64,000 nt of DNA. Source: a bacterium (GTDB lineage: Archaea > Thermoplasmatota > E2 > JACPAO01 > JAHFTW01). The notes under the pieces were generated by a model. That model saw nothing but the letters and a program-made list of their open reading frames with translations, was not told where the DNA came from and ran no database searches. Position 1 is the stretch's first letter, and every line of letters begins with the position of its first letter. The stretch covers positions 245,170 to 309,169 of the forward strand of contig JAZJZE010000005.1 of the NCBI GenBank assembly GCA_040390065.1, read 5' to 3'. The translations under genes and the position numbers were made by a program. This document shows, piece by piece, positions 11,732 to 55,036 of this stretch.

Positions 11732-11816
11732 TCAGCCGTCCTTGCGGGTCTTGAGGATCTCCACGTCGATGCGGAACGATTGCCCCGCTAGGTCGACGTT
11801 GGATTCCTTCATGCCT
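11732..11816 (-). pseudogene. Orphan duplicate of the psmA 3' end (27 codons plus stop)
   Basis: GMKESNVDLAGQSFRIDVEILKTRKDG* versus the gene's GMKESNVDLAGQSFRIDVETLKPRKDA*. Confidence 0.9.
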
Positions 11817-11956
11817 ACGACCTTCAAACGAAGGTCGATCACGTTGCGTCCGCCGGTCCTTTCGAACCGGCATCAGCGCCGCCGGAGCCCCGGCTCCGTC
11901 GGCGGTCGTATGGCCTCATTCCATGTCGGCCCCACATAGCCCCGCTGGGGAATCCT
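11817..11956 (-). mobile_element. 140-bp hairpin-rich miniature element (same family as 51602-51684)
   Basis: Minus strand: CCCCAGC..CTATGTGGGGCCG..AGGCCATAC ... TGATCGACCT-N8-AGGTCGT|AGG; flanked by 85-bp recoded duplicates. Confidence 0.65.
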
Positions 11957-12628
11957 TCAAGCATCTTTTCGGGGCTTCAGCGTCTCGACATCGATGCGGA
12001 ACGATTGCCCCGCCAGGTCGACGTTCGATTCTTTCATGCCTTTCAGCGTCGCGTCCGCGGCGGCGCGCACGACATCCTCGAGCTTCTTGCCCTTGGCCTT
12101 CATGCCTTCCGCGAGCACGTGTTCCGCTTGGCTGGCTTCCTTGCCGAGGGCGATGCCATTGCGGTCCGTCGCGTTGCCGTCGACGTCGCAGTGGTACACG
12201 GCGGGGATCTGGCCGCGGTTGTCGAAGCCGGCGACGATGATGCCGACGCCGAGCGGGCGCCGGTAGCTCATGCCGAGCTGGTGCAGGTAGTCGGACAGCG
12301 CAAGGCTCACTTCCTTGGGCGAGACCTCGCTGCCGAGGACGAACTTGTGGTTGACGGCGAGGTCGCGAAGCAATTGCCGGACCTGGTTGGTGTCGCCGCC
12401 GTGGCCGGTCACGAGCACGACGCAGTCGCGGCTGACGCGGATGACTTTGTCGGCGCCCGTGTACAGCGGGTTGCCGTCGCGGTTGACGGTCGCGACCACG
12501 ACTTCCTTGTCGTTGCGCGCCGCGATGATGGGCAGGCCCATGCCGAGGGTGATGCGGGCGTACTTGATGGCCGGGATGCTGCCGGTCTCGTCGAAGTGCA
12601 GGTAGGCGGTGTCGACGGTGGGCTTCAT
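11957..12628 (-). CDS. psmA: Proteasome subunit alpha-like, divergent
   Basis: Ntn-fold motifs DKV, GxxxD, RPLGVGIIVAG, VYHCD..G, ALG; degenerate N-terminal gate; coupled to psmB. Confidence 0.75.
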   Translation of the reverse strand: MKPTVDTAYLHFDETGSIPAIKYARITLGMGLPIIAARNDKEVVVATVNRDGNPLYTGADKVIRVSRDCVVLVTGHGGDTNQVRQLLRDLAVNHKFVLGSEVSPKEVSLALSDYLHQLGMSYRRPLGVGIIVAGFDNRGQIPAVYHCDVDGNATDRNGIALGKEASQAEHVLAEGMKAKGKKLEDVVRAAADATLKGMKESNVDLAGQSFRIDVETLKPRKDA

Positions 12629-13257
12629 TTCATGGCCTCCGCGGTGTCCTCGGTGACTTCCTGGCTGAATGTGAACGTCTTGAGTTGGTATTCGCCGGTG
12701 TTGGGCAGGGTGTAGACGACCATGCCGTTGCCGGACGCCACGTCGCGCTGCGTGCTTGCACGGACGGCGCGCTTTGCAAGGTCAACGGCGGTCGCGATGG
12801 TCTTGACCTTCGCCCAGTCGGCCGATTCCAGCACGCCGACGGCGGGGCCGGTGCCCGATCCGGTGACCGTGAAGTCCTTCTTCTGGATGAGCGACCCGTC
12901 GCCGCCGACATCCCACAGGTGGACGCCGTCGTTGCCGCGCGTGGCCAGGATGAACTGGCCGTAGATGCCGCCCGAGCGCTGGATCGTGTGGGCTGCAAGC
13001 TTGGCAAGCTCATTTGGCGAGAGCGGCCAGCCGCGCCGGGACTTCGTGTACTCGAGGTTGAGGCGGAGCATGTGCGCGTAAGCCTGGGCCTGCGCGACGG
13101 AGCCGGCGATGGTGATCGCGGAATCGGTGTCCAGGGGCTCGATCTTGACGACGTCCTTGTCGGCCACGTAGTACCCGGCAGTGGCCCGGCGGTCGGTCGC
13201 CATGACGATGCCTTCCGGGGTCTTGATGCCCACAGTGGTTGTCATCGTCCCGGGCAT
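12625..13257 (-). CDS. psmB: Proteasome subunit beta
   Basis: TTTVGI with Thr1/Asp17/Lys33 spacing intact, TGSG, RDVASG; start at 13257 or 13245. Confidence 0.88.
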   Translation of the reverse strand: MPGTMTTTVGIKTPEGIVMATDRRATAGYYVADKDVVKIEPLDTDSAITIAGSVAQAQAYAHMLRLNLEYTKSRRGWPLSPNELAKLAAHTIQRSGGIYGQFILATRGNDGVHLWDVGGDGSLIQKKDFTVTGSGTGPAVGVLESADWAKVKTIATAVDLAKRAVRASTQRDVASGNGMVVYTLPNTGEYQLKTFTFSQEVTEDTAEAMK

Positions 13258-13324
13258 TGTCAGCGCTCGTATAAAGAAAGGGCAGTGTGGGCATGCCCGC
13301 ATCGATGGCGTGGCCGGGCGCGAC

Positions 13325-13972
13325 TCACTTCGTGCGTGGCGGTGGGGCCCCTGGATTGGCGGAACGTTTTGCCGCGTTCTTGGCGCGAGCGCGCCGTTCC
13401 CCGGGCCCGGCAATCACAGCGTAGATGCCGCGCAGCAGGAACTCCACGACGACGACGATGAAGAAGAACGCCGCCACGAGGTCGATTCTGGCGAAGACCT
13501 GCTGCAACGCCTGGAACGCGTCCTTCACCGTGTTGAACTGAGGGTTGGCAACGAGGACGACGCCGAGCAGGCCGAGCGGCATGATCTTCCCCAGTTCCTG
13601 CGCCGCGTCCTCATGGAAATACGCGACGATGCGGATGGCAATCACGATGGCCATGCTAATGGGCAGGATTTCGTCCGGCGTCAACTGCTGGCCGCTGTTC
13701 GAGCTTCCGGCAAATGGGGCCAGCAGCGCCAACGCTCCGGCAATGACCAGGAAGAACGCGAAGGAGATGAGAGGGAACAGGAGCAAGTAGAGCGTCCGGC
13801 GGCCCGATGTGACGACGCGGTCGTCGCCGACCTTGCGGCCGAGCATGAGCCGGTGCCCCATCGGGACGTACAGCAGCGTGACGAGAAGGGTGTAGACGGC
13901 GATGCCGCCGGCATAGAGCCCGAGTTTCCCAAGCGGTTCGCTGTTGCCGCCCACCCACTGCCCGAAATCCAT
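13325..13972 (-). CDS. Multi-pass membrane protein
   Basis: About five hydrophobic helices. Confidence 0.75.
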   Translation of the reverse strand: MDFGQWVGGNSEPLGKLGLYAGGIAVYTLLVTLLYVPMGHRLMLGRKVGDDRVVTSGRRTLYLLLFPLISFAFFLVIAGALALLAPFAGSSNSGQQLTPDEILPISMAIVIAIRIVAYFHEDAAQELGKIMPLGLLGVVLVANPQFNTVKDAFQALQQVFARIDLVAAFFFIVVVVEFLLRGIYAVIAGPGERRARAKNAAKRSANPGAPPPRTK

Positions 13973-14014
13973 GCCGAGAGATGGGCGGACCCCCGGAAAG
14001 CCTTCGCGGCTTGG

Positions 14015-15526
14015 TCACATGAGCCGCTGCTGCCCGCGGTTGGCAAGGACGGGCAGGGACCGGGGGGCTTCCGGAGCCGCGTCGCGCGGGGGCGTGGGGG
14101 CGGACCGCACCCCAATCTGCCCTGCAGCAATCCGGTCCAACTCCGCGAGGAAATCCGATTCCCGGTCGCGCGGAATCGTCGCCCCGGCCGCGCCCTTGTG
14201 GCCGCCGCCCTGGCCGCCGACGCCAGCGGCTGCTTCGCGCATGGCCATCGAGAGGTCGATGCCGCGGGCATGCAGTTCGTGCGGTGCGCGGCCAGAGATC
14301 TTCGTGCGGCCGTCCGGCGTCCAGGCGAGGCCGACGAGCACCTTGTCGCGGTCCAGTTCGACGCCGCCGCCGAGGGCCATGCCGCACACGATGCCGACGA
14401 CGGTGTCGCGCACGCGGTCTTGCAAGTGCACGTGCTGGATGGCGACGCGCCGCGTCACGCCGGCCCGCACGAGTGCGTCGAGGGCGCCCACGAGGTGCTT
14501 GCGGTGGTCCAGCAGGAGGTCGAGGGCCTCGCGGTACGCGGCGCCGCGGTCGCCGCGGCAGACGGCCAAACCGATCTCGGGCCGGTCGTACCGCGCCGTG
14601 CTGTTGAGCAACGTGGAGAATTCCTGCAACTCCCGTAGCGGCGTGGCGGGCGCTTCGTTGCAGATCGTGACGACGCGACGGAACAGGGCCGGCACTTGAT
14701 GGGCTAGCCCGCAGTCCACGAGGATGGACGCTAGACGCGACCGCAGAAGGAGCCGTTCGCGGTCGTCAAGAGCGCCCCAACTGCGTTCGACGCCGCCAGC
14801 CTCGATGGGGATGCCAAGCTCCATGCAAAGGCGTTCGGCGCTGCGGGCATCGCCGGAAACCGTGGGCACGCCGGGCTCGCGGGATAACTGGAAGAATTTG
14901 CGAAGCGGACGCGTCTCGGGGCCGAACCACGTGATATCCACCGCCTGCGAAACGAGGCCGCGCGACTGGCCGTCCGCGACGAGCAGCGCGTTCGTGCCGG
15001 CGAAGCCGCCGTCGTGACGGTCTTGGCGGTCGCCGCTCGCGCCCACGAGGGCCAAGGGGAGAAGGTCCGCATTGCGCCCATCCATGGCCGCGGCGACGAG
15101 GTAGCAGCACCCGGCCCCGGAGATCGTGTTGCCCTCGATGCCGTCGAGGAGCGGGTTGACATGCGCAAAGGACTCCTCCTGTCCGTCGCGCACGAGTTCA
15201 TGGTGGTCGCATACCAGCCGCGGCGTCGTGGGGAAATGCATGTACGCAGTCGAGCCGAGGTCGCAGAACCAAAGCGCCTGGGGGTCCACTCGGGCGATGA
15301 TGTCCAGGTGGAACTGGTCGAGCGCCTTCACCGGTTGCAGGATGTGGGCAACGCCCGCCCGACTCAGCGTTTCCGCGGCGATGGCCCCGGACGTGACCCC
15401 GTCGGCGTCGATGTGATGCACGACCGTGACGGTGCGGCCTGCGGCGGCGTGCTCCCGCACCCATGAAGCGCCCCGCTGGGCGCGAACGCGAAGACGCGGG
15501 TCGAGGCCTGCAGGCAGCGCATCCAA
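14015..15526 (-). CDS. Archaeal RecJ-like DHH/DHHA1 phosphoesterase
   Basis: HIDADG, CDLG, CDHH, GDRQ, GGGH motifs. Confidence 0.9.
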   Translation of the reverse strand: MDALPAGLDPRLRVRAQRGASWVREHAAAGRTVTVVHHIDADGVTSGAIAAETLSRAGVAHILQPVKALDQFHLDIIARVDPQALWFCDLGSTAYMHFPTTPRLVCDHHELVRDGQEESFAHVNPLLDGIEGNTISGAGCCYLVAAAMDGRNADLLPLALVGASGDRQDRHDGGFAGTNALLVADGQSRGLVSQAVDITWFGPETRPLRKFFQLSREPGVPTVSGDARSAERLCMELGIPIEAGGVERSWGALDDRERLLLRSRLASILVDCGLAHQVPALFRRVVTICNEAPATPLRELQEFSTLLNSTARYDRPEIGLAVCRGDRGAAYREALDLLLDHRKHLVGALDALVRAGVTRRVAIQHVHLQDRVRDTVVGIVCGMALGGGVELDRDKVLVGLAWTPDGRTKISGRAPHELHARGIDLSMAMREAAAGVGGQGGGHKGAAGATIPRDRESDFLAELDRIAAGQIGVRSAPTPPRDAAPEAPRSLPVLANRGQQRLM

Positions 15527-15585
15527 TGGCGCCGCATACGGGTCGACCCCATAAGAGGGGAACCGGAGGCGGGTGAAGGTTCGCC

Positions 15586-15912: not shown

Positions 15913-15963
15913 AGGCGCGCCCGCACCGCTTATCCGAAACCTCGGCCTGCAAGCACCATCTCC

Positions 15964-18811: not shown

Positions 18812-21800
18812 TCAGGGCGCGTTCCAGAACGCCTTGTAGGCCAAGCTCTGGCTCAGTTGCGATGTGGCGCTGCCCTGGCTGGGCAGGCTCGCCGGAATGG
18901 GCAGGGCGTCGTGGCTGTTGTTGAATGCGTCGAGGGCGCTGGCAGCGGCCGTGATGGCAGCCGCATTGCCTGCCGCGTAGGCGGCGTCGCCAGCGGTGAT
19001 GAGCGCCAGGCTGGCCGGGCTGCAGCCGAAGGCCGCGCAGTTCAGTTTCGCGGCCACGAGTTGCTGGGCCAGGATCATGCGCGCCTGCTCCACGACCGTG
19101 CGCTTGCCGCCCAGCGTCATCTTCGAGATGTCGGCGAAGAAGGCACCGTAGAGCTGGCTCTGTCCGGCCCCGGCCGCGTTGGTCACGAGGCCCTTGTGGG
19201 GCGCCGCGCCGACGGTGAGGGAGCCGCCCAACTTGGTGGCCAGGATGGCGTTCGTGAACGCCGTGTGGGTCGACCAGAAGCCCTGCGTCCGGGTCGCCAC
19301 GGGGTTGTCATTGTTGGTGACCGTACAGGTCCTCAGTTCGCCAAGGGCAATCGTTCCGGTGCAGTCGGCGCTGAAGCTGGCGGTGTATCCGGGCGCCGGT
19401 CCTTCCGTGACCGCGTACGCACCGGCGTTCAGTTCAACGAGGACTCCGCCTTCGGCCCCGTTGAAGCTGGCGGGGCTTGCGGCCACGCCGGCCACGAAGA
19501 GGGTGAAGTTGGCCGCAACCTTGGCGCCAGCGTCATCATTGATCACGTGCTTCACGACGCGCAGGTAGGGCTGCATGTCGTCGTTGGTGAGCCAGCATTG
19601 CTTGGCGTCGCCGACGTGCAGCACGACGTGTCCGGCGGCGTCGCAGTCGCCAGCGAAGGTGCCTGCGTAGCCAGCGGGACCGGCCGCTTCCGAGACATGG
19701 TACGCGCCGGCCATGAAGCCGGTGACGGCGTCCAACTGGACGACCGTGTCGTTGACGAGGAAGGTCCAGTCTGCCGCGGCCGCCGTGCCACCGTCATTGT
19801 TGGTCACGAGCTTGTGGACGGCCAGGGTCGGGCGGATGTCGTCGTTCGTCAGGACGCATTGCTTGACGTCACCGACCGCAAGCGCGATGGTGCCGTTCGC
19901 CGCGCAGTCGCCGCTGAAGGCGAGGGCGTAGCCGGCCGGCCCGAACTCACGGATCTGGAAGAGCGTCGGGGAGGCGTCGATGCCTGTCGGGACGCCGGAT
20001 TGGACCTGGACGAGGTCCACGAAGTACTCCCAGTCGGCGACTTGGGCCGTGCCGCCGTCGTCGTTGACCACGACTTTGCTGACGTTCAGGATGGGCTGGA
20101 TGTCACTGTTGGTGAGGATGCATTCCTTCTGCTCGCCGATGGCCAAGGCCACCATTCCGTCGGCGTCGCAGTTGCCGCTGACGGCAAGCGCGTAGCCGGC
20201 TGGTCCTTGTTCCGTGACCTGGTATTGGCCGGCGTTGAAGCCAGTCGCCGCGCCGCGCACGACTTGCACGTCGCCGACGAAGAAGCTCCAGTCGTCCGCC
20301 ACGGCCAGGCCGCCGTGGTCGTTCTCGACGACCTTCGTGACCTTGAGTTTGGGCTGGATGTCGTCGTTGGTGATAGTGCATTGCTTGTCGTCACCGACGA
20401 AGAGCTGGATGGACCCCTCCGCGCAGGACTCGCCAAACGAGGCAAGGTAGCCGGCCGGCCCCGACTCGCCGATGGCGTAGGTGCCGGCGTCGAAGCCAAC
20501 GGTTTCGTCAAGGTCCACTTGGGTGTCTTCGACCATGTAGTCCCAGTCGGCCGCGACCGCATCGCCGCCGTTGTCGTTGACCACGAGCTTGTGCAGGGTC
20601 AGCTTGGGCTGGATGTCGTCGTTCGTGATCGTGCACTCCTTGTCGTCGCCGACGGCCAAGACGATGGAACCTTCGGCGCAAGCCGCGTCGAAGCTGGCGG
20701 CGTAGCCCGCGGGACCATCCTCGGAGATGGCGTACGTGCCCGCGTCGAAGCCGTGCGGGACGCCGCTCAGGACCGATTGGTCATCGACGGACAGCAGGAA
20801 GTCGCCGACCTCGGCAAGACCTCCGTTGTCGTTCGTGACGAGCTTGGTGACCGTCAGGATGGGCTGGATGTCGTCGTTGGTGAGGATGCAGGTCTTGGCG
20901 TCACCGATGTCCAGGTGGACTTCGCCGTCGGCGTCACAGGCGCCCGAGAAGGCGGCCGCGTAGCCGGCGTCACCGGTCTCGCTCACGACGTAGTCGCCCG
21001 CGTTGAAGCCGTTGGCGTCGCCCGATCCGACCGGGACGAGGCCGACAAAGAGCGGGAAGTCGGCAACGCCCAAGGTGCCGCCGTTGTCGCTGTGGACAAC
21101 CTTGATGACCGTCAGAATGGGCTGGATGTCGTCGTTGGTGATCGTGCAGGTCTTGGCATCGGCCAAGGCGAGGGCCACGTGGCCGTCAGCCGTGCAGGCG
21201 CCATCGATGGCCTCGTTGTAGCCCGCGGGCCCGATCTCGCTCACGACGTGGTCCCCGACATCGAAGCCGTTGGCCTCGCCGCTTGCCACCGACGTGTCGT
21301 CGACGAAGAGCTGGGCGTCGCCGACCACGGCAGTGCCCCCGTTGTCGTTGACGAACACCTTGACGACCGTGAGCATGGGCTGGATGTCACGGTTCGTGAT
21401 GATGCATTCCTTGGATTCCCCCACGGCAAGGCTGACTTGGCCATTGGCATCGCAGGCGCCACCGAACGCGGCCGCGTAGCCGGCATCGCCGACTTCGCTG
21501 ACCGTGTACGTGCCGGCGTGGACGCCGCTGGCCTGGCCGCTTGTCACGAGAAGGTCATCGATGTAGAGCGGGAAGTCCGCCACTTGCAGCGTGCCCCCGT
21601 TGTCGTTCTCGACCACCTTGGTGACGGTCAGCAGGGGCTGGATGTCGTCGTTGGTGAGCGTGCAGGCCTTGTGGTCGCCCACGGCCAGCGAGATGGAACC
21701 GTCCGCCGCGCAGTTGCCCGAGAAGGTTCCCGTGTAGCCGGGCAGGCCCGTCTCGGAGACCAGGTAGTCGCCCGCCGGGAAGGTGGCGGCGACACCGCTT

Positions 21801-23074
21801 GCGACCTGCGTGTCGTCGACGAACAGGTCGAAGGCCGCGACCGTGGCCGTGCCGCCGTCGCCGTTGTCCACGACCTTGGTGACGGTCAGCGTCGCGCGCT
21901 GGTCGTCATTCTGCAAGTCGCATTCCTTGATGTCGCCATCCAGGAGGATGATGCTCCCATCCGCGGCGCAGTCGCCCGAGACGAAGGTGCCCAGGTAGCC
22001 GTCGACGGCGTCCTCGGCGACCGTGTACATGCCGGCAGGGAGGTTGACGTAAGACGTGCCGAACGGGTCGCCAGGGGCTGGGCTGCCCGTGACGTCCGCG
22101 CCGAGGTCATCGAAGACGTGGATGGAGAAGTCAGCCGGGGCTGCCAGGCCGCCGGCGTCGTTCACGACGGTCTTCACGATGGTGAGCGATGCGCCAAGGG
22201 GATGGACCGGGATCACGGTCTCTTCCTTCATGGAGCGGTCCTGGTTGCCGCCGGTTCCATCAAGGGCGATGAGACGCATGTGATACGGCGAGCCCCCGAT
22301 GCCCGTGGTTGCGTTAATCGATGGCCAGTCGAGGGACGAGCCGATGTGGCCGCCCCAGGCGAGCACCACGGTCGGAGATGCCGCCATGAAGGTGATGCGC
22401 ACGCGGGCTTCCGACTGGGCGTCGGTGAGGACGCCCTGCGTCGTGTAGACCGCAGCGGCGATGGCGCCGTTGTAGATGGTGAAGTTGCGCTCGGCCTGGG
22501 GCAGGGCGTTGAAGCTGTCAAGGGGCATGGGCGAGCCGGCCGGGATGGGCACCGGGTATTGGGCACCGGCCACGCACGGGGCGACGCCGTCACAGGGGTC
22601 CACGAGTTCCACGATCCGCCTCGCCGAGGTGAGGAAGTCGATTGCGTGCTTGCCACCGTGGGTGATGTCGAAGCCGATGTCAAGGGTGTGGGTGCCGGGC
22701 GACATGCCCGTCAGGACCATGCGGTACGCGGCCGATTGGCCTTCGACGTAGTGCGAGTCGTGCTGGTTCAGGTTGCCGTTCACCCAATTGCAGGGGCTTT
22801 CCGAGACGATGGGGGGCCCGCGGGCGCCGTTGGCGCACTGGTCGAGGTCCGCAGCCGGGTTGAACTGGACTGGCGGAGCGGCTGCCAGGGGGACCGGAAG
22901 GAGAATCGAGAGACAAAGAAGACCGGTGAGGATGGAGGAGACAAAGAACGGGCGAACGCTGGTCGCCGCTGTGGGCGGTGCAGCCTTCGGCCGGGCCGCC
23001 GTGTGCGGTTTCCGGGAATTCGGACCGCGAATTGCCTTCCTGTTCGGCAAGGGAGTCATGACGGCACGTTCCAT
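18812..23074 (-). CDS. Large secreted protein with 11 tandem prealbumin/CnaB-like repeats
   Basis: Signal peptide; ~85-aa repeats LTVxKxVxNDxGG...YxVxE...C...CxxTNDD; TQGFW C-terminal domain. Confidence 0.85.
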   Translation of the reverse strand: MERAVMTPLPNRKAIRGPNSRKPHTAARPKAAPPTAATSVRPFFVSSILTGLLCLSILLPVPLAAAPPVQFNPAADLDQCANGARGPPIVSESPCNWVNGNLNQHDSHYVEGQSAAYRMVLTGMSPGTHTLDIGFDITHGGKHAIDFLTSARRIVELVDPCDGVAPCVAGAQYPVPIPAGSPMPLDSFNALPQAERNFTIYNGAIAAAVYTTQGVLTDAQSEARVRITFMAASPTVVLAWGGHIGSSLDWPSINATTGIGGSPYHMRLIALDGTGGNQDRSMKEETVIPVHPLGASLTIVKTVVNDAGGLAAPADFSIHVFDDLGADVTGSPAPGDPFGTSYVNLPAGMYTVAEDAVDGYLGTFVSGDCAADGSIILLDGDIKECDLQNDDQRATLTVTKVVDNGDGGTATVAAFDLFVDDTQVASGVAATFPAGDYLVSETGLPGYTGTFSGNCAADGSISLAVGDHKACTLTNDDIQPLLTVTKVVENDNGGTLQVADFPLYIDDLLVTSGQASGVHAGTYTVSEVGDAGYAAAFGGACDANGQVSLAVGESKECIITNRDIQPMLTVVKVFVNDNGGTAVVGDAQLFVDDTSVASGEANGFDVGDHVVSEIGPAGYNEAIDGACTADGHVALALADAKTCTITNDDIQPILTVIKVVHSDNGGTLGVADFPLFVGLVPVGSGDANGFNAGDYVVSETGDAGYAAAFSGACDADGEVHLDIGDAKTCILTNDDIQPILTVTKLVTNDNGGLAEVGDFLLSVDDQSVLSGVPHGFDAGTYAISEDGPAGYAASFDAACAEGSIVLAVGDDKECTITNDDIQPKLTLHKLVVNDNGGDAVAADWDYMVEDTQVDLDETVGFDAGTYAIGESGPAGYLASFGESCAEGSIQLFVGDDKQCTITNDDIQPKLKVTKVVENDHGGLAVADDWSFFVGDVQVVRGAATGFNAGQYQVTEQGPAGYALAVSGNCDADGMVALAIGEQKECILTNSDIQPILNVSKVVVNDDGGTAQVADWEYFVDLVQVQSGVPTGIDASPTLFQIREFGPAGYALAFSGDCAANGTIALAVGDVKQCVLTNDDIRPTLAVHKLVTNNDGGTAAAADWTFLVNDTVVQLDAVTGFMAGAYHVSEAAGPAGYAGTFAGDCDAAGHVVLHVGDAKQCWLTNDDMQPYLRVVKHVINDDAGAKVAANFTLFVAGVAASPASFNGAEGGVLVELNAGAYAVTEGPAPGYTASFSADCTGTIALGELRTCTVTNNDNPVATRTQGFWSTHTAFTNAILATKLGGSLTVGAAPHKGLVTNAAGAGQSQLYGAFFADISKMTLGGKRTVVEQARMILAQQLVAAKLNCAAFGCSPASLALITAGDAAYAAGNAAAITAAASALDAFNNSHDALPIPASLPSQGSATSQLSQSLAYKAFWNAP

Positions 23075-40341: not shown

Positions 40342-42238
40342 ACGCCGGTACAACCGAAATCTCGAGCCCGCGCTTCTCCGCCAACAACAGCGCCTGCCCT
40401 TCGGGCGATTCCGTCTTGAACCGGATCTTCCCGTCCTTCGAAGCAGTCGCCTCGCCGACGACGGCGCCTTCCACTTCCACCCGATAAATCCCCGGCTGGC
40501 CGCCGTTCAGGAACAGGAACACGTTCGTGCTCGTCCGCTTGAGTCGCACGCGCGGGACCGAGTCGGCGCCGCGCCGCGGCCGCTCTTCGTCCACCACGCC
40601 GCCGAGGTAGCGTTCGTCGTTGGATTCGCGGCGACGCGGAGCACGTTCGTCCAGAGCCTTGATCTGCAGCCCAATGCCGAGTTTGTTCTCCAGCATCTGC
40701 ACGGTTCGTCCGCCTTTGCCGATGAGGGCAGGCACTTCGGATTCGCTCACCATGATTGTGGCGGAGTTGCCGCGCACGCGGATCTCCATGGGGCCCTGCA
40801 CGTACTTTCGTAACATCGACGCTAGCTGCTTCTCTGCGAGTTGGCTGGCGGGGTCGCGCGTCGTGCCGATCTGGTCGAGGGGCATGACGACGACTTGCTC
40901 GCCGTACGTGTACAACTCGTAGACCGGCTTGCCGCCTTCCATCACGTCCTTGACGACGACGACGGGGCGCGCAAGGTCGGCGTCCTGCATGCCGGACGGG
41001 ACCTTGACCGTGAATTCGAGTTCGAGGACTTGGGCAATCCTGCCGGCCTCGACGAACAGGACGGTGTCGACGACTTGGGGAATCATGCCGAGTTCGACGC
41101 GGCCAATGAGACGCTGAACCGCGTCGATGGCGCGGTTGGCGTGCGTGACCCCGATGAGGCCGACACCGGCGAGGCGCATGTCGGCGAAGGTGCGGAAGTC
41201 CTCCGTCGTGCGGACCTCGTCGTAGATGACGTTGTCCGGGCGAACGAGCAGGATGACGTCGCCGGTCCACTTCATGTCGCGGTCGAGGGCGCCGTACTGT
41301 GTCACTTCCTTGGGGACTTGCAGGTCGCGCGGCTGCTCCATGGTCTTCACGACGCGGTGCAGGCTGTGCAAATGCTCGGCGACGGCTGCTGCGAAGGTGG
41401 ACTTGCCCGAGCCCGGCGGACCTGCCACGAAGACGCCGCGGCTGTGACCCTCCAGGCGCTCCATGAGAATCGGTTCGAGTTTGTAGTCCGAGATGTGCTT
41501 CTTCGTGATGGGCCGCACCGCGGTGATCTCGAGCCCGTCGGCAAAGGGCGGCTGCGCGATTGTGATGCGCAGGGGGCCAAGTTGGATGACGGTGCAGCCG
41601 TGCTTCTCCATCTCGATGAAGGAGTTGTAGTCGCGCTTGGCGAACTCGATGCACTCCTTCGCCATGGCGCGCAGTTCCGCGTGGCCCGAATCTCGCGTCG
41701 TGGCACTGAAGGGCTCGTACCGGACGGCGCCGGGCTGGCCGCGCTTGACCATCGGCTTGCAGTCGGACTTGAGGTGGACACTCATCGTCTGCGCGTCGAA
41801 GAAGGACCAGAGTTTGAGGCCCGTGAGGTCGATGTCCTTCACGACGGGCCGGATGTAGTGGTGCCGGATTCCTTGGGCAGCGGCGGCGTGGGCCTGCACG
41901 CGGTCGCTCGTCACGAAGATGGCCTTCTGCGCCACGGCGACGTCGCGGATCCTCGCATCGATGGCGCCGCTGCGGGCTTGGCCGATCTCGTCGCGGTGCG
42001 GGCGCTCGCCGACGAATTCGACGGTGATCTGGCCGGCGGCCGCGAGCTTCTGCAGGCTGGCCAGTTCGTCGAGCCCGGCGACGCCCGTCTCGAGCCCACG
42101 GTTGGCCTGGGCTTCCAGCTCGGCGATTGCCGCCAGCGGCACGACGACGCGCGCCTTGGGGAATTCGCCGGATGCCAAGAGTTCCGTGATGCGCCCGTCG
42201 ACCAGGACGGACGTGTCGGGAACCAGGGTTTCGCTCAC
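40340..42238 (-). CDS. PIN-ATPase-KH protein (PINA/MJ1533 family)
   Basis: PDTS PIN motif, GPPGSGKST, DEVR, GVTHA, IGKGG KH motif; GTG start. Confidence 0.93.
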   Translation of the reverse strand: MSETLVPDTSVLVDGRITELLASGEFPKARVVVPLAAIAELEAQANRGLETGVAGLDELASLQKLAAAGQITVEFVGERPHRDEIGQARSGAIDARIRDVAVAQKAIFVTSDRVQAHAAAAQGIRHHYIRPVVKDIDLTGLKLWSFFDAQTMSVHLKSDCKPMVKRGQPGAVRYEPFSATTRDSGHAELRAMAKECIEFAKRDYNSFIEMEKHGCTVIQLGPLRITIAQPPFADGLEITAVRPITKKHISDYKLEPILMERLEGHSRGVFVAGPPGSGKSTFAAAVAEHLHSLHRVVKTMEQPRDLQVPKEVTQYGALDRDMKWTGDVILLVRPDNVIYDEVRTTEDFRTFADMRLAGVGLIGVTHANRAIDAVQRLIGRVELGMIPQVVDTVLFVEAGRIAQVLELEFTVKVPSGMQDADLARPVVVVKDVMEGGKPVYELYTYGEQVVVMPLDQIGTTRDPASQLAEKQLASMLRKYVQGPMEIRVRGNSATIMVSESEVPALIGKGGRTVQMLENKLGIGLQIKALDERAPRRRESNDERYLGGVVDEERPRRGADSVPRVRLKRTSTNVFLFLNGGQPGIYRVEVEGAVVGEATASKDGKIRFKTESPEGQALLLAEKRGLEISVVPA

Positions 42239-50482: not shown

Positions 50483-51601
50483 TCACGACGGGTGGTCCCG
50501 CCGCGCGGCGTCCCCGTAGATCTCCAGCAACTCCGCCGTGATGCGGTCCCAGTTGAACAAGTCGAGCCGGGCCGCACTCGCCTTCGACATCTTGCCGCGC
50601 AAGGCGACGTCGGCTGCGACCTTGCCGACCTCGCGCGCCCAATCCTTCGGGTCATGCCCGAGAAGCGGCCCTGCATCCCCGACGGCTTCGGGGATGCCGC
50701 CGACGTCGGAGCAGACGAGCGGTGCACCGGCGGCCATCGCTTCGAGCAGGCTGAACGGGAACGACTCGAACCGGGCAGGATGGACGTAGACATCAGCGGC
50801 CTTCAGCAGCCGCACCTTCTCCTCTTCGCTGACCCAACCCGGGAACTTGACGCGGTGCGCGATCCCCAAACGTTGAGCCCGCTTCTTCCAAGCCTCGAGC
50901 ATCGGGCCGCGACCGACGAGGACGAGGTCGAAGGGCTCGGGGACGTCACGCCAGGCATCGATCAAGACGTCGAATCCCTTGAGGGCCACGAGGCGGCCCA
51001 CGGCGACGGCAAACGGATGCGGCAGGCTGGTCGCAGGCCGGCCTTCGATGCGCTTGATCTCGTCGAGTTCGACGGCGTTGTAGTTGAGGCGCAGCGGTTC
51101 GGCAGGAAAGCCATGTTGCACGAGGTCGCGGCGCACACGATCGCTGACGCAAACGACGCGGCGAGCGGCGCGCAGGGTCCGCATGTACATGCGGTCGTTG
51201 ACTTTGCTCGCCAAGCCAAGGATCCCTTTCCCTTCGCCGTAGGTGTTGTGATACGTGATGACGCCCGGACATGAAATCTCCCGGAACGCCTTGTTCCAAC
51301 TCGGCGACCAGCGGAAGTGGAAGTCCACGACGTCCGGAGCCAAGGCGTTGACGTACGCGGCGACTCCTTTCGTGCGTACCGGCGGCGGGTTGTAGAAGCG
51401 CTGCAGGGGGAAGGAGGACGGCAGCCGATGGACCGTGACGGCGCCTTCCTTTTCGATGCCGGCGGCCGTGCCTTCGAGCTGGGCGGTGACGATGTGCACG
51501 TCGTGGCCTTGCGCGGCCAGCCGCTGCGTGATGCTGCGGATGCGTCGCTCGATGCCGCCAGCGAAAGGAAAGTAGAAGGGGTTGAGGTGGACGATTCTCA
51601 T
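50483..51601 (-). CDS. Glycosyltransferase family 4
   Basis: GGIE, GRL...KG, ESFPFSLLEAMAAG, SDVGG. Confidence 0.93.
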   Translation of the reverse strand: MRIVHLNPFYFPFAGGIERRIRSITQRLAAQGHDVHIVTAQLEGTAAGIEKEGAVTVHRLPSSFPLQRFYNPPPVRTKGVAAYVNALAPDVVDFHFRWSPSWNKAFREISCPGVITYHNTYGEGKGILGLASKVNDRMYMRTLRAARRVVCVSDRVRRDLVQHGFPAEPLRLNYNAVELDEIKRIEGRPATSLPHPFAVAVGRLVALKGFDVLIDAWRDVPEPFDLVLVGRGPMLEAWKKRAQRLGIAHRVKFPGWVSEEEKVRLLKAADVYVHPARFESFPFSLLEAMAAGAPLVCSDVGGIPEAVGDAGPLLGHDPKDWAREVGKVAADVALRGKMSKASAARLDLFNWDRITAELLEIYGDAARRDHPS

Positions 51602-51839
51602 GGCAACCCCCAAGCACTGTGTGGGGCCGGAGGCTTGGAAAGCCGCAGGCCCCACCCGTGTTGATCGACCTGACTGCAGGTCGCAGGGAAGTAGAAGGGG
51701 TTGAGGTGGACGATTCTCATGGCAACCCCCAAGCACTGTGTGGGGCCGGAGGCTTGGAAAGCCGCAGGCCCCACCCGTATTGATCGACCTGACTGCAGGT
51801 CGCAGGGAAGTAGAAGGGGTTGAGGTGGACGATGCGCAA
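51566..51839. repeat. 119-bp tandem unit x2 plus 36 bp: GT4 start codons 1-12 (x3) interleaved with an 83-bp hairpin element (x2)
   Basis: Start copies 51566-51601, 51685-51720, 51804-51839; elements 51602-51684 and 51721-51803 differ by one base. Confidence 0.92.
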
Positions 51840-51946
51840 GGCCAACGACCGGCCCACGGGCCGCTCCCTCAAGACCCTGGCGCCTCCCTGGGGCTACATA
51901 AGGGTTAGGCGGCACTCTCAAGCCTTTTGGAGGGGAATCCTGGGGC

Positions 51947-52201: not shown

Positions 52202-52241
52202 CAGGGAGAAGCCTGAAGCCGGGGTCGCCGTCGCCGCAGCC

Positions 52242-53483
52242 ATGCCCCTCCCCCCGCAGGCGCAGGGCCTGTGCGACCGATGCCTTGGTCGTCGGCTGAT
52301 TGGCGCGGCAGGGGAGGCACCGCAGCGGGCGTCCGGTGCGGCGGCCCGCACGGCCGAAGGCTGGACCGAGGTGGCCGAGGCCTCCTGCTCAGTATGCGAG
52401 GGAGCGTTTGCCGATGCGCCGCAATGGCTCGCCGCGGCGCTGGAAGCCTCCAAGCCGTACGAGTTCACCACGTTCCAGGCCGGGACCAAGTTTCCCGGAG
52501 GATGCGAGGCACTCGAGAAGGCGCTATCCGCGGCGATTGGGCAGGACAAGGTCGGCGAGACCATCCGCACGGAGGCCAATCGGCTGCTTGGCGCGGGATT
52601 CTCGGCCGCGACCGGTGCCAAGCCCGTCGCCGAAGGCGGCCGCCCGGACCTCGTCCTCACGGTCGACACGCGGTTCTGGTCTTGCGACGCGCAGGCCGGG
52701 CCCGTCTTCGTGCGTGGTCGGTACAACAAGCTCCGCCGCGACATCCCGCAGACGCATTGGCCGTGCCGGCGCTGCCAAGGAACGGGCTGCTGGCAATGCA
52801 ACGATACGGGTGTCACGTATGCCGAGTCGGTCGAGGACGCCATCGGTGATCCGACGCAGCCGCTGTTCGGTGCCACCTCCTTCAGTTTCCACGGCGCCGG
52901 CAGGGAGGACATCGATGCCCTGATGCTTGGCACCGGCCGACCTTTCATCCTCGAACTTGCGGACCCGAAGCGCCGCGCCGCCGACCTGCGTGAGATGGAG
53001 AACCGCATCAACGCCGAGACCGCGACGTCGGGCACGCGCGTGCAAGACCTGCGCATGGCGAACCGGGAGGAGGTCGTCGCCATCAAGGAAGGCGAGTACA
53101 ACAAGGAGTACCTGGCGCATTGCCTCGCCGAAGCGCCGTTGACCAGGACACAGGTCGAAGCACTCTGCCAGCAACTCACGGGCACGATTCTCGAGCAGCG
53201 CACCCCGGAACGCGTCAGCCACCGCCGCGCCGACCTCGTGCGCCGCCGCACGGTCCACCACGTCGTCGTCGAGGCCATGCCAGCGGACCCGGGCGTCCGC
53301 TTCTCGCTGCGCGTGCTTGCCGAGTCGGGCACGTACATCAAGGAAATGGTCAACGGCGACGAAGGCCGCACGGTGCCGTCGTTTTCGTCCCTGGCCGGGG
53401 TCCCCGTCAAGGTCGAGTTCCTAGACGTCATGGCGATCCTCGACGACGTGGCGCCCACCGGGGCTCCCGCTGACGCCGGCTAA
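52242..53483 (+). CDS. pus10: tRNA pseudouridine(54/55) synthase Pus10
   Basis: GRYNK..R.IPQT.W, FHGAGREDID, QRTP.RV.HRR, GTYIKE. Confidence 0.96.
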   Translation: MPLPPQAQGLCDRCLGRRLIGAAGEAPQRASGAAARTAEGWTEVAEASCSVCEGAFADAPQWLAAALEASKPYEFTTFQAGTKFPGGCEALEKALSAAIGQDKVGETIRTEANRLLGAGFSAATGAKPVAEGGRPDLVLTVDTRFWSCDAQAGPVFVRGRYNKLRRDIPQTHWPCRRCQGTGCWQCNDTGVTYAESVEDAIGDPTQPLFGATSFSFHGAGREDIDALMLGTGRPFILELADPKRRAADLREMENRINAETATSGTRVQDLRMANREEVVAIKEGEYNKEYLAHCLAEAPLTRTQVEALCQQLTGTILEQRTPERVSHRRADLVRRRTVHHVVVEAMPADPGVRFSLRVLAESGTYIKEMVNGDEGRTVPSFSSLAGVPVKVEFLDVMAILDDVAPTGAPADAG

Positions 53484-53487
53484 ACGG

Positions 53488-53494
53488 TTATAAA
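53488..53494 (+). promoter_or_regulatory. TATA box upstream of rpl21e
   Basis: TTATAAA in GC-rich context ~75 bp upstream of the ATG. Confidence 0.55.
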
Positions 53495-53566
53495 CCTGGA
53501 CCGGTCCCGTGAGTCCACCGAGTGCGGTGCCCTACATGGGGTGCCGTGCCAATCCAAGGTTTGACC

Positions 53567-53869
53567 ATGCCCGTCCGCTCCAAGGGACTCCGCAGCAAGA
53601 CCCGCCACCTGCTCCTCAAGGACCCGCGCAAGCGCGGTGTTCTGCCCCCCAACCGCGTCCTGCGGCAGTTCGCCATCGGCTCGACGGTCGCCGTCAAGAT
53701 GGAGCCGTCGCAGCACAGCGGCATGACGCACAAGCGCTTCCAGGGCCTGACCGGCACCGTGCGCGCCAAGCAAGGCGAAGCCTTCGTCATCGACGTCATG
53801 CACGGCAACATGGCCAAGACGCTCGTCGTTCGCGCCGAGCACCTCATCCCGATCCAGTCCCAGAAGTAA
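53567..53869 (+). CDS. rpl21e: 50S ribosomal protein L21e
   Basis: SKG.RSKTR, H.RFQG.TG.V, EHL; conserved pus10-rpl21e-rpo4 order. Confidence 0.96.
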   Translation: MPVRSKGLRSKTRHLLLKDPRKRGVLPPNRVLRQFAIGSTVAVKMEPSQHSGMTHKRFQGLTGTVRAKQGEAFVIDVMHGNMAKTLVVRAEHLIPIQSQK

Positions 53870-53882
53870 GGAGGCCCTCACC

Positions 53883-54248
53883 ATGTCCGACGCCGACGTC
53901 ATCCTTGAAGAGACCGTGGAGGAAGGCCGCCTCGTCAGCCTCGGCGAAGTGAAGGCGATGCTGGAGAAGGCCCAGGTCGACCGCGACGAACTGACTTACG
54001 AGCAGAAGATCGCCCTCGAGCACGCCAAGCGCTTCGCCCGCATCGACGGGAAGACCGCGAAGACGCTGGCGGCCGACGTCGGCAAGGCCCTGCCCGGCCT
54101 CGAGGAGAAGTTCTGCATCCGCGTCGCCGACCTTCTGCCGCAGCACCCCGACGACGTGCGCGCCATCCTGCAGAAGTCGCGCCACGACCTGACCGACGAC
54201 GAGATCGCCAAGATCATCGCCATCGTGGACCAGCACTACACTGCGTAA
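53883..54248 (+). CDS. rpo4: RNA polymerase subunit Rpo4 (F)
   Basis: LTYEQ..ALEH...F, ADLLP...DDVRAI; synteny. Confidence 0.93.
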   Translation: MSDADVILEETVEEGRLVSLGEVKAMLEKAQVDRDELTYEQKIALEHAKRFARIDGKTAKTLAADVGKALPGLEEKFCIRVADLLPQHPDDVRAILQKSRHDLTDDEIAKIIAIVDQHYTA

Positions 54249-54265
54249 GCCCAGGAGGCCAACCC

Positions 54266-54853
54266 ATGGAAGACTACGTCCACATCCTTGACTACTTGCC
54301 CCAAGGCCGCCCCGACTCGCCGCCCAGCCGGCGCGAGCCGACGCTGCTTGGCCTCGGCGAGCAGCAGTTCACGCTCTTCGAGCTCGTGCCCAAGTCGGGC
54401 GCGCAGTTCACCATCGGCGACCGCGCCTACGTCGGCAAGGACGTCGACCAGCGCACCCTGGTCCAGAAGATCCGGGGCCGCATCCAATACCACGAGTTGA
54501 CACCTGCCGCGCACGGCGAGCTGCCGTACGTCATCGAGGACGTCGTCAAGACGGACCCGGCGCGCTTCCTGAAGTTCTTCAACGACGCGCCATCGATCTC
54601 CGTGCGCTACCACGCCCTGGAACTCCTGCCTGGCATCGGCAAGAAATCCGTCGAGCACCTCGTCACCGAGCGCAAGAAGCCCTTCGAGTCGTTCGAGGAC
54701 CTCGAGGCGCGCGGCAAGGTCGCCCATCCGATGAAGGTCGTGATTGGCCGCATCCTGCACGAACTGCAGGACCCCACTGAAAAGTATCACATCTTCGTGC
54801 GCCCTCCCGCTCAGGAGAGGGAAGAGTGGCGTGGTCCCCGCAGGGGACCGTAG
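54266..54853 (+). CDS. DUF655 domain RNA-binding-like protein
   Basis: E.Y..ILDYLP.G, FFN.A..I..R.H.LELLPGIG, F.SFED; synteny. Confidence 0.93.
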   Translation: MEDYVHILDYLPQGRPDSPPSRREPTLLGLGEQQFTLFELVPKSGAQFTIGDRAYVGKDVDQRTLVQKIRGRIQYHELTPAAHGELPYVIEDVVKTDPARFLKFFNDAPSISVRYHALELLPGIGKKSVEHLVTERKKPFESFEDLEARGKVAHPMKVVIGRILHELQDPTEKYHIFVRPPAQEREEWRGPRRGP

Positions 54854-55036
54854 CGCCCTCGACCCCGATTCCTCGGGAGGGCGCATCGGGCTACGGCCCG
54901 CAAGGGCCGTAGCGCAGGTCAGCCCTCCTGCTCAGGAGAGGGAAGAATGGCGCGGGCCGCGGCGCGGCCCGTAGCGCGCCCTCTGCGCGAATTGTCGGCG
55001 GACGCATCGGGCTACGACCCGCAGGAGACCGTAACG
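54801..55036 (+). repeat. 121-bp degenerate tandem duplication of the DUF655 3' end plus hairpins (~60-bp sub-period)
   Basis: PPAQEREEWRGPRRGP* at 54801-54853 and 54922-54974; hairpin+CCGTA(G/A)CG with GTA at 54850, 54909, 54971, 55031. Confidence 0.88.

Follow-up and report, generated by a model that had tools for sequence, protein, structure and literature searches.

The window analysed here, a 64,000-nt stretch of an archaeal genome, contains three genes of which one end occurs more than once, with a short hairpin-rich insert lying between the end in use and an orphan copy of it. This raises the question of how a gene end becomes duplicated beside such an insert while the gene stays intact. 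Its source is the 2.68-Mb MAG of an uncultured archaeon of the Thermoplasmatota (G000, 89% complete), and the loci were compared with the rest of that genome and with its relatives.

Results

Three Duplicated Gene Ends in the Window

The duplications at the psmA, GT4 and DUF655 genes were found where the original prediction had placed them (Table 1), and the phenomenon proved larger than noted there. The psmA gene (11957-12628) encodes a Proteasome-family subunit (alpha or beta), and its two 3' ends, 225 nt apart, share 84% identity, with nine synonymous and three non-synonymous codon differences. The orphan is slightly nearer to the relatives than the in-use end by score in 6/7 comparisons. 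The terminal hairpin variant of this insert was seen three times, and a shorter sibling of the insert lies at G000:C5:313624.

At the second locus, where the assignment as a GT4 glycosyltransferase gene holds, a 119-nt unit is present twice (51566-51684 and 51685-51803, 98%) and is followed by a third copy of the gene end, 39 nt long. The composite middle copy fits unequal crossing-over in a one-unit ancestor, a state still seen in the closest relative of G000 (G004). The depth of the second element copy in Logan contigs was about twice that of its flanks. Of the five relatives that lack the insert, four have an ATG or GTG start codon with CGC next to it.

The inserts of psmA and GT4 have in common a variable hairpin (containing TGTGGGGCCG, a loop and GGCCCCAC) followed by TGATCGACCT, a loop and AGGTCG, and they are members of one family, here called E. 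CCT and AGG are separated by a loop of 8 nt at psmA and of 6 nt at GT4, instead of the predicted 7/8-nt spacing, and because of these lengths the exact pattern first noted matches the window only once (0 expected). TGTGGGGCCG alone, once proposed as a marker, is not found above chance (8 occurrences with at most one mismatch versus 12.25 expected).

The DUF655 gene (54266-54853), the identity of which also holds, has two 3' ends with 84% identity. The downstream part of its insert is repeated after the orphan too, which makes the locus a diverged tandem unit of 121 nt. The single architecture proposed for the three loci was seen at all of them, but it is doubtful whether the DUF655 insert belongs to the family, as it shares only GCAGGTC with the terminal hairpin of E.

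Table 1. Positions of the duplicated gene ends and their inserts in the window.
Feature	Position	Strand	Description
X1, in-use 3' end of the Proteasome-family gene 11957-12628	11957..12041	-	85 nt including the stop codon
Element E, psmA copy	11817..11956	-	140 nt: variable hairpin, extra hairpins, terminal T hairpin
Terminal T hairpin TGATCGACCTTCGTTTGAAGGTCG	11818..11841	-	8-bp stem, GTTT loop, orphan 1 nt away
X2, orphan proteasome 3' end	11732..11816	-	Frame and stop codon intact
X1, in-use GT4 5' end	51566..51604	-	Start ATG at 51599-51601, then AGA codon
Element E, GT4 copy 1	51605..51684	+	Variable hairpin and T hairpin (51663-51683)
Middle copy of GT4 5' end	51685..51723	-	Between two elements; left part matches the orphan, right part the in-use copy
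Element E, GT4 copy 2	51724..51803	+	T hairpin at 51782-51802
Orphan GT4 5' end (TTG CGC ...)	51804..51842	-	Resident start as in relatives
In-use DUF655 3' end	54801..54856	+	8 synonymous and 0 non-synonymous codons versus orphan
Insert Z1	54857..54921	+	Hairpin CTACGGCCC-GCAA-GGGCCGTAG, then GCAGGTCA; 7-nt likeness to T
Orphan DUF655 3' end	54922..54977	+	Same 16 residues and stop encoded
Z2, resident counterpart of Z1	54978..55036	+	Past the orphan; 89% over 27 nt

A Family of Modular Hairpin Elements

G000 carries about 29 copies of E, a string of GC-rich hairpins (modules A, B, C and D) of 60-160 bp, dispersed at gene ends with no single array. Every copy is closed by a conserved hairpin, T, which is always last and has a 7-bp stem and a 4-nt loop (CGACCTG-TTTG-CAGGTCG and compensatory variants). 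Modules A, B and C are confined to the vicinity of T, within 260 nt (A 13/13, B 20/20, C 34/36), and the two ends of the element, module A and T, are unlike each other. Stem pairing among 69 copies of T was TG/CA in 41, TT/AA in 27 and lost in one, showing that the stem is kept through two-sided change. Copies are shortened at the 5' side and their 3' end is constant. The predicted insertion beside a hairpin found no support, and the constant hairpin is the element's own right end. T is present in 17/32 genomes of the family and its 21-mer is conserved in 6/11 genera, the dominant T-loop subfamily differing from genome to genome. The predicted family of miniature non-coding hairpins between an in-use gene end and its orphan is borne out, with many further copies of the motif beside duplicated ends in both G000 and its relatives. 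Most copies are cargo-less, as expected, but the ProRS unit contains the sole open reading frame within an insert, coding for a 129-aa protein to which no family was assigned.

Flanking Repeats and the T Junction

At 15/29 T ends in G000 (alignment score of at least 25), the 19-129 bp after T copy the sequence left of E, as compared with 4/1500 random positions; in the other genomes, 24/46 assessable copies are flanked likewise. The repeated sequence, hereafter X, corresponds to the 3' end of a gene, to the 5' end of a gene or to a portion of a tRNA, and several loci of G000 and its relatives display the in-use end followed downstream by one or more orphan ends. The repeat starts 0-2 nt past T at 14/15 loci, the exception being tRNA-Met (55 nt), where a second partial element lies between. 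The bases after T were G at +3 in 18/27 and at +4 in 22/27 junction sites, and GG occurred inside the first 5 nt in 20/27 sites versus a fraction of 0.32 in controls, the 27 sites including a few orthologous loci. GG at +3/+4 is the general feature of the junction, and the start of the in-use copy at GAA/AGG that had been pointed out holds for psmA and GT4 but is not general; apart from a weak GGNCA preference the targets have nothing in common. Housekeeping functions make up the targets (ThyX, an RFC-like ATPase, ProRS, SecY, the proteasome subunit and tRNAs), and within one genome at least 15 different targets carry the same 21-nt element end and module order. The same gene has also been hit independently with different boundaries, as in psmA (85 nt in G000 versus 24 nt in G042) and thyX (64 nt in G000 versus 50 nt in genus g4). 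Since roughly every second copy, in most cases a full-length one, has neither a flanking repeat nor the GG motif, a second mode of insertion must exist.

Synonymous Divergence between the Copies

The two ends encode identical or near-identical residues, and diverged copies have reached the between-species level. In agreement with the prediction of mostly synonymous differences, 11 pairs of gene 3' ends differ in 42 synonymous and 13 non-synonymous codons, and 45/61 nucleotide differences are at codon position 3 (P = 9e-17 versus random change; P = 5e-9 versus a model with one freely drifting copy). These substitution patterns indicate that both copies of the gene ends evolved as coding sequence. 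The less typical codon usage ascribed to the in-use copy was a tendency only, its GC3 being lower than that of the orphan in five pairs, higher in one and equal in five.

Empty Sites and Mosaic Loci in Relatives

Relatives mostly have single, empty sites, as was seen at all 14/14 orthologous psmA loci and at 21/25 thyX loci in the family. In thyX of three species, G043, G044 and G024, identity is 100% for the right part of the in-use X and 94-95% for E, as compared with 83% for the gene body, about 81% for the downstream flank (flanks about 80-83%) and 87-91% for the right part of the orphan; G015, a fourth species of that genus, and G004 have single thyX ends. Selection on some function of E could be part of the reason why E and the 23 nt next to it are so highly conserved.

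In G012 the acceptor of the in-use tRNA-Met is of the AAG/CTT type, as in G000, G004 and G008, and the right part of the orphan is of the ACG/CGT type, as in G003 and G006. The orphan copies in both G000 and G012 have C37, which nine single-copy relatives lack. This speaks against a simple join at the T boundary and fits either a crossover within X or the transfer of an X-E-X unit that already existed. The thyX block, the tRNA-Met of G012 and the empty sites support the predicted arrival of one copy with the element from a related lineage. For several orthologous insertions, namely those at GT4 in G000 and G004 and at tRNA-Ser in three species, vertical inheritance rather than transfer could be the explanation.

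Search for a Cognate Enzyme

The link to HUH enzymes that had been put forward found no counterpart in the 89%-complete G000, in which neither the IS200/605 Y1 HUH transposase (PF01797) nor TnpB (PF07282) gave any match, although the controls matched, and in which no relaxase or RAYT-type Y1 HUH gene was found; the HUH result covers the Y1 transposase and the relaxase, as the IS91, Rep_1 and Viral_Rep controls stayed silent. Reverse transcriptase (PF00078) likewise gave 0 matches, its controls being positive. The genome has six tyrosine and five serine recombinase genes, the nearest of them at least 9 kb away from E. The window had been thought to hold no cognate enzyme; two serine recombinase genes are in fact present (458-2008 and 2005-3069), but nothing ties them to E, and a serine recombinase occurs nearly throughout the family, in genomes with E and without it alike. 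No free form of E, circular or linear, was seen among the contigs.

Discussion

We consider it probable that the E loci represent a lineage-wide family of non-autonomous gene-end cassettes, in which a cassette, consisting of a gene end and a hairpin element, passes between related lineages and recombines at the homologous end, so that the resident end becomes a downstream orphan. A donor lineage would have E just past a gene end, and DNA extending from inside the gene, through its end and E, to the last base of T would enter a related genome; the block conserved across species and the foreign-type in-use ends show that such a piece does move. Recombination in the shared sequence would then make the piece part of the homologous gene, with its T end attached to the resident gene at a point upstream of that gene's own end. 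The gene would thereby finish or start with the incoming, synonymously different copy and the resident end beyond T would be orphaned, which is the outcome that the loci display. The T junction may form by preference 2 nt before GGNCA, pointing away from random breakage and towards an enzyme or a defined DNA end at T. Thereafter, X-E-X may spread among relatives via ordinary homologous recombination, as the mosaic flanks of thyX fit, may amplify in tandem through unequal crossing-over (GT4, tRNA-Ser), and may be removed by recombination between its two copies, as the patchy distribution fits. Conserved genes and tRNAs are over-represented as targets, and only these keep enough homology between species for such a transfer.

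REP/BIME, REPIN with RAYT and the IS200/IS605-derived PATE are short, GC-rich, modular extragenic hairpins that occur in many copies, mostly past gene ends, leave the target unduplicated and require a Y1 HUH enzyme. E resembles REP/BIME as a many-copy family of modular extragenic palindromes, but differs from REP/BIME with RAYT and from PATE in that no Y1 enzyme was found in G000 and in that half of its copies have long flanking repeats. The repeats of 19-129 nt at 15/29 copies also set it apart from IS200/IS605, which inserts without duplication by a fixed 4-5-nt target, and its differing ends and long variable duplications from MITEs, which have terminal inverted repeats and short duplications of fixed length. 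Whereas integron cassettes form an attC array with R'/R'' boxes (GTTRRRY) at attI next to an IntI gene, E copies are dispersed at gene ends.

An unlikely alternative, in our judgment, is that E transposed in place and gave rise to a long target-site duplication of variable length (target-primed or by staggered cut), after which the copies diverged by drift and allele exchange and no gene end travelled. The constant 3' end, the 5'-shortened copies and the variable-length flanking duplications of target-primed SINE/LINE insertion are all features of E; several flanking pairs show full or almost full identity (129/129, 39/39, 63/64 and 46/46), and the genome-specific T-loop subfamilies suggest spread within genomes. 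The flanking copies are nevertheless not simple duplicates. The synonymous bias of the diverged pairs far exceeds the one-drifting-copy model, the in-use end is conserved with E across species whereas the orphan is species-specific, the orphan tRNA part of G012 is of another native type, and reverse transcriptase was not found in G000. In-place transposition may still be the first origin of X-E-X. It is quite improbable that the loci are remnants of integrase-encoding integrative elements from which interior and integrase have been deleted, leaving attL/attR with a replacement gene end. The direct repeats do contain a gene end or part of a tRNA, as attL/attR do, and PMC13626634 describes matching features for e14 in icd/icdC and for tRNA-targeting islands, namely an in-use end, an element and an orphan end, synonymous differences, tRNA genes and gene ends as targets, and horizontal spread; the recombinase genes of G000 would also be in keeping with such an origin. 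Compared with the elements described there, E has no integrase and is about 100 times smaller. One E end, moreover, meets many unrelated targets with no single-target conserved core, the weak GG at +3/+4 being all they share, and one 21-nt end and module order at so many sites is not what independent deletions would leave. Repeats of att type were not found around the integrase genes, a large version with X copies at its borders was not encountered (inserts range over 60-530 nt), and E-like sequence was absent from the viral, phage and plasmid collections searched.

A by-product of host replication or repair, in which hairpin-rich DNA stalls forks and causes local tandem duplication and gene conversion in the absence of any mobile element, seems to us still harder to credit. 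It would account for the tandem arrays (GT4, tRNA-Ser, G005, G017, G042 and G045) and for the T-less inserts of like architecture at SecY, an aminotransferase gene and DUF655, but not for a T end lying exactly at the junction at dozens of loci, a 21-mer conserved across genera, copies diverged as far as species are, or the foreign-type in-use ends and the partial evidence of block transfer between lineages. That two strains were fused in one contig by the assembly is extremely improbable. The source is a MAG, and the GT4 array is split into short Logan contigs; on the other side, the same architecture recurs in MAGs deposited under other isolate and assembly names, which argues against an artefact, and a de Bruijn edge from the E end to another strain's gene end would need a real join. 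A 16,316-nt Logan contig also crosses the DUF655 duplication without a difference, though it is not independent, being probably from the same sample.

Gene-end cassettes as proposed here share features with two further described systems. One of these, insertion with long target duplication (Nobusato et al. 2000; Furuta et al. 2010, PMC2853133), involves bacterial restriction-modification cargo and near-identical repeats; as with E, there is no mobility gene, target repeats are variable and exceed 30 bp, they often span a stop or start codon and leave the gene intact, and relatives have empty sites. The present elements differ from that account in occurring in archaea, in being hairpin elements of 60-160 bp with an unvarying junction end, and in having repeats that can differ synonymously at the between-species level. 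In the other, homology-facilitated illegitimate recombination displaces C-termini and builds orphan arrays at Rhs, CDI and T6SS loci, and PMC5361080 describes, similarly, a homology anchor in the conserved part of the gene, an illegitimately joined other end and a resident 3' region orphaned downstream. There, a different toxin and immunity gene are acquired, in contrast to the same protein end and the housekeeping targets found here, where the non-homologous join is always made by one hairpin. Hairpin cassettes of this kind look like a little-known route by which DNA passes between related genomes while leaving genes unbroken.

Results

Starting Loci, Element E and Terminal Hairpin T

The source Thermoplasmatota MAG (G000; 2.68 Mb, 50 contigs, G+C 66.8%) carries duplicated gene ends at psmA, GT4 and DUF655, whose positions and layout match exactly those of the original prediction, which had been made from the sequence alone. 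The gene names also hold, with the caveat that the "psmA" product matches the general Proteasome family only and may be either an alpha or a beta subunit. On the psmA gene strand, the 85-nt in-use 3' end is followed by a 140-nt insert and an 85-nt orphan 3' end, and GT4 has an in-use 5' end, a middle copy and an orphan copy, in that order, with an 80-nt insert in each of the two gaps. Both the psmA and GT4 inserts terminate in TGATCGACCT-loop-AGGTCG, 0-1 nt away from the orphan copy, and both have a hairpin of the form ..GTGGGGCCG-loop-GGCCCCAC.. ahead of this sequence. In Logan data, which consist of assembled contigs in which rare alleles and free forms are not visible, a 16,316-nt contig from the probable source sample crosses the DUF655 duplication without change. 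The GT4 array is broken there into short contigs with a depth of about 2x the flanks, and none of the listed contigs bridges the join between the first GT4 copy (X1) and its insert. Sequencing runs X2 and X3 gave near-zero coverage of the window.

A whole-genome scan of G000 found 29 copies of T, a hairpin with a 4-nt loop on a 7-bp stem, which forms the right end of a multi-hairpin element, E. Full-length E is approximately 150-160 nt long and is built from fixed modules, namely A (GCGAGCGC-N-GCGCGAGC), B and C (two hairpins of G/C runs) and D (a hairpin of variable sequence), followed by (C)AAAT and then T. Modules A, B and C are confined to 260 nt or less from T (13/13, 20/20 and 34/36, respectively), and a full E copy, as single-stranded DNA, is predicted to fold into consecutive hairpins (-60.8 kcal/mol, z = -2.7). 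The inner pair of T was TG/CA in 41, TT/AA in 27 and unpaired in 1 of the 69 copies compared; since these changes keep the pairing, the T stem, or else a symmetric binding site, is under selection. Within the family, T was found in 17 of 32 genomes, spread over 6 of 11 genera, with 0 matches to a control pattern, and the dominant loop variant differs from genome to genome. The T 21-mer is also present in records titled Thermoplasmatota archaeon MAGs, and two of the records holding it are labelled "uncultured Halobacteriales".

Rfam gave no family at the gathering score in the window, and full-length E produced chance-level matches only, leading us to reject a known RNA family as the identity of E. 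E-like sequence had 0 matches in viral, phage and plasmid collections, and a metagenome collection gave matches on only 2 short contigs. A tRNA-Ile(GAT) called by ARAGORN in the window was not reported by the Rfam tRNA model at the gathering score, and is possibly intron-containing or else spurious.

Flanking Repeats and Target Genes

For 15 of the 29 copies in G000, what follows T is a repeat of the sequence left of E, over 36-129 nt and with 84-100% identity, as compared with 4 of 1500 random control positions. The repeat starts 0-2 nt past T in 14 of the 15; at tRNA-Met, it starts 55 nt past T, with a second partial element in between. At a sixteenth copy, the 3' end of a tRNA is repeated over 19 nt, and the same flanked arrangement was found at 24 of 46 assessable E copies in other genomes. 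The repeated gene end (X) is the 3' end of a gene that runs in the same direction as E (proteasome subunit, ProRS, ThyX, RFC-like ATPase, BNR protein and CoA-binding protein), the 5' end of a gene pointing away from E (GT4), or part of a tRNA (the 3' part of tRNA-Met, and parts of tRNA-Ser, tRNA-Ala and tRNA-Gln). In this X-E-X layout, the copy still attached to the gene is in every case the one at the variable left side of E, with the orphan directly against T.

Repeat-flanked copies of E are mostly left-shortened and full-length copies mostly lack the repeat, several of the latter being embedded in another abundant repeat of about 190 nt. This second repeat (..GGGCCGCCGGGGGGCCTGAAAGACC..) is present at least 20 further times, mostly on contig C9, often in inverted pairs, and some of its copies have a full E in place of a variable hairpin segment. 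The sequences left of unflanked E copies matched other repeat families only, and no gene fragments at non-homologous loci were found there. Two inverted E copies on contig C11 enclose housekeeping genes, peptidase M24 and a PAN-like ATPase, and were rejected as a composite transposon. Tandem cassette arrays with periods of 91-141 nt occur in several genomes and often lie at contig ends, so that cassette copy numbers in short-read assemblies are probably underestimated. Identical 55-nt repeats flanking runs of N are likely assembler scaffolding overlaps rather than biology, and should be left out of repeat censuses.

Other duplications enclose inserts without T. DUF655 shares an X-E-X-like layout, and its insert, which lacks T except for GCAGGTC, is a diverged version of the hairpin region resident downstream. 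A related genome, G007, has an independent duplication at this gene end, and the end is single in 8 of the 9 relatives shown (read by eye). In each of the two DUF655 copies, the terminal codons (G P R R G P) make up a hairpin, with sequences that differ (GGTCCCC-GCA-GGGGACC versus GGGCCGC-G-GCGGCCC), so that the synonymous differences are also stem-compensatory. The insert at SecY ends in another hairpin (GGGCGACGC-CGCA-GCGTCGCCC), 3 nt before the orphan. With their T-less inserts, SecY and an aminotransferase gene show a process that extends beyond the T family.

Coordinates of features at and around the loci (positions without a contig are those of the window, G000:C5:245170-309169)
Feature	Location	Strand	Remark
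Serine recombinase gene	458-2008	+
Serine recombinase gene	2005-3069	-
tRNA-Met	3395-3470	-
Tyrosine recombinase gene	G000:C5:244361-244879		~300 nt ahead of window start
1420-aa ORF	18812-23074	-	about ten diverged tandem repeats, period 255-264 nt (families D1-D3)
tRNA-Ile(GAT)	41120-41211		92 nt
GT4 40-codon ORF	51599-51839; also L042 (G004)	-
DUF655 terminal hairpins	54830-54850; 54951-54971
ProRS cassette	G000:C9:136656-137168		ORF at L132 379-768 (-)
SecY 3'-end duplication	G000:C1:400571-400873		insert without T
Aminotransferase 3'-end duplication	G000:C5:87218-87552		insert without T
Gene-end duplication	G000:C1:130365-130718		insert without T, with hydrophobic-looking 67-aa ORF
Second abundant repeat	G000:C9:83194-83380
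Inverted E pair	G000:C11:27.5-32.6 kb
Tandem cassette arrays	G005:C3:231428/231519; G017:C1:24236/24357; G042:C233:2530/2632; G045:C179:6752/6893
Repeats flanking N runs	G000:C1:249900-250222; C50:8788-8997; C50:15458-15667; others

Divergence between In-Use and Orphan Copies

We compared gene 3' ends in 11 pairs, of which six have T, one is DUF655 and four have other inserts, and found 42 synonymous versus 13 non-synonymous codon differences, with 45 of the 61 nucleotide differences at codon position 3. The synonymous share expected is 0.23 for random change and 0.37 for one copy drifting freely (P = 9e-17 and 5e-9, respectively). The cleanest pairs, in synonymous versus non-synonymous differences, were SecY (8 versus 0), DUF655 (8 versus 0) and the aminotransferase gene (7 versus 1); one pair had non-synonymous differences only (two), and one orphan had gained a stop codon. 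Judged by this pattern of substitution, both copies bear the mark of coding selection. The further claim that the in-use copy carries the less typical codons survives as a tendency, as its GC3 fell below that of the orphan in 5 pairs, exceeded it in 1 and matched it in 5.

Observations at thyX, tRNA-Met, psmA and GT4, and repeated hits on the same genes, support movement of the in-use end together with E. At thyX, the same 50-nt repeat and 63-nt E are shared by three species of a different genus, g4 (G043, G044 and G024). Between these species, the right part of X in the in-use copy (23 nt) is 100% identical and E is 94-95% identical, as compared with 83% for the gene body, about 81% for the downstream flank, 78-85% for the left part of the in-use copy and 87-91% for the right part of the orphan. 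The thyX end is single in a fourth species of that genus and in 20 other genomes. At psmA, every one of the 14 orthologous loci in relatives is insert-free with a single gene end; in 6 of 7 comparisons with relatives, the orphan scored slightly higher than the in-use copy, and identity to G004 along the gene gave no sharp step marking a donor tract. G004 carries one GT4 unit with the same boundary as in G000. The GT4 orphan begins with (G/T)TG CGC, as do 4 of 5 insert-less relatives (G005 has ATG AGG), and the in-use copy carries AGA. Independent events with differing boundaries have struck the same genes, namely psmA (in G042) and thyX (G000 versus g4).

In tRNA-Met, the acceptor stem and T arm co-vary within the genus as three types. 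The in-use copy of G012 has the type of G000, G004 and G008, and the right part of its orphan has that of G003 and G006. At position 37, the orphans of both G000 and G012 have C, and the in-use copies and nine single-copy relatives have A. The C37 marker does not fit a simple boundary join; it suggests that the unit also brought in the part of the orphan next to T, which would imply either a crossover within the repeat or the transfer of a ready-made X-E-X. The middle GT4 copy joins the left part of the orphan to the right part of the in-use copy, which we noted as a sign of amplification; it was dropped as proof of a crossover inside X, since unequal crossing-over in an ancestor with a single unit accounts for it just as well.

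Open Reading Frames in the Cassettes

At GT4, a 40-codon ORF begins at the displaced start codon, runs through E and stops in an xTGA overlapping the start of the next copy (ATGA in G000, TTGA in G004). The A of ATGA comes from the rare AGA codon of the in-use copy, and the unit lengths, 119 and 116 nt, are each 2 mod 3. The overlap may represent termination/re-initiation coupling. The ProRS cassette contains a 129-aa ORF without a Pfam family, whose ATG overlaps the in-use stop (TAATG), the orphan having TGAGG. The elements had been described as cargo-less, and this ORF indicates that not all cassettes are.

Candidate Enzymes

The proposal of an HUH enzyme found no counterpart in G000, where searches detected no Y1 HUH transposase, TnpB or relaxase family, and no reverse transcriptase. 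Searches for IS91 Y2, Rep_1 and Viral_Rep gave 0 matches, with their controls equally silent, so that these zeros carry no weight. G000 has six tyrosine and five serine recombinase genes, two of the latter within the window, and none of them lies near an E copy. The six tyrosine recombinase genes have no surrounding repeats, save unrelated distant matches, and integrase islands were rejected as candidates. One serine recombinase is present in 27 of the 32 family genomes whether or not E is present; its occurrence thus counts as no evidence of a link to E, which we treat as unsupported. The serine recombinase genes of the window, one with a Resolvase domain and the other with Resolvase and Recombinase domains, adjoin tRNA-Met. 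Together with the neighbouring tyrosine recombinase gene, they look like the edge of an integrated element, and no link of this cluster to the hairpin elements was found.

Junction Sequence

No conserved sequence was found left of the in-use copy, and no microhomology was visible between T and the sequence there. After T, at 27 sites that include a few orthologous loci, G is present at +3 in 18, G at +4 in 22, C at +6 in 14 and A at +7 in 17. GG occurs within the first 5 nt at 20 of the 27 sites, versus a fraction of 0.32 at random positions (P = 8e-6), and the motif is absent from repeat-less E copies. The constant T end and this GGNCA preference argue for a defined cutting or joining activity.

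Discussion

The X-E-X layout, the coding-type divergence of its copies, the block conserved across species, the empty sites in relatives and the tandem arrays are direct observations. We propose that a donor fragment, extending from the gene interior to the last base of T, would integrate by being anchored through gene homology, with its T end joined upstream of the resident end. Alternatively, the fragment may circularise first, with a single crossover then integrating the circle. Later, ordinary recombination would spread X-E-X, as in the mosaic flanks of thyX, and would amplify or remove it.

The known kinds of event closest to the E loci are long target duplication and gene-end displacement. 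The proposed cassette integration resembles the end displacement of Rhs and T6SS genes by homology-facilitated illegitimate recombination (PMC5361080), and also "insertion with long target duplication" (PMC2853133). Our literature search turned up the latter, gene-end-replacing integrative elements, orphan toxin-end arrays and REP/REPIN elements, and gave no description, in archaea or elsewhere, of a miniature element made of hairpins, invariant at one end and lying between in-use and synonymously different orphan gene ends.

A bolder reading, which we regard as possible and rather unlikely, is that of a distinct new class of mobile DNA, in which the mobile unit of a non-coding hairpin element takes in a piece of the host gene. 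Such a unit would exit as a small circle or concatemer, probably single-stranded, closed at T by a putative enzyme, and would re-enter the homologous gene of another lineage via recombination or as a rolling template, with essential genes and tRNAs as portable landing pads and tandem arrays as the footprint of rolling copying. Some recoded codons might then be cassette adaptations, such as the GT4 AGA that makes the ATGA stop/start overlap, and the TAATG coupling of the ProRS cargo ORF might be another.

If the proposal is true, orphan gene ends and split-looking tRNAs would be prone to miscalling in annotation, and recombination-aware phylogenetics would also be affected. It would provide a recurrent, sequence-defined model both of gene-end displacement and of the as yet unexplained "insertion with long target duplication", with dozens of natural events open to dissection, and would point to an unknown enzyme acting on a 7-bp hairpin. 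It would also mean that uncultured archaea swap the ends of even essential genes and tRNAs between species as small cassettes.
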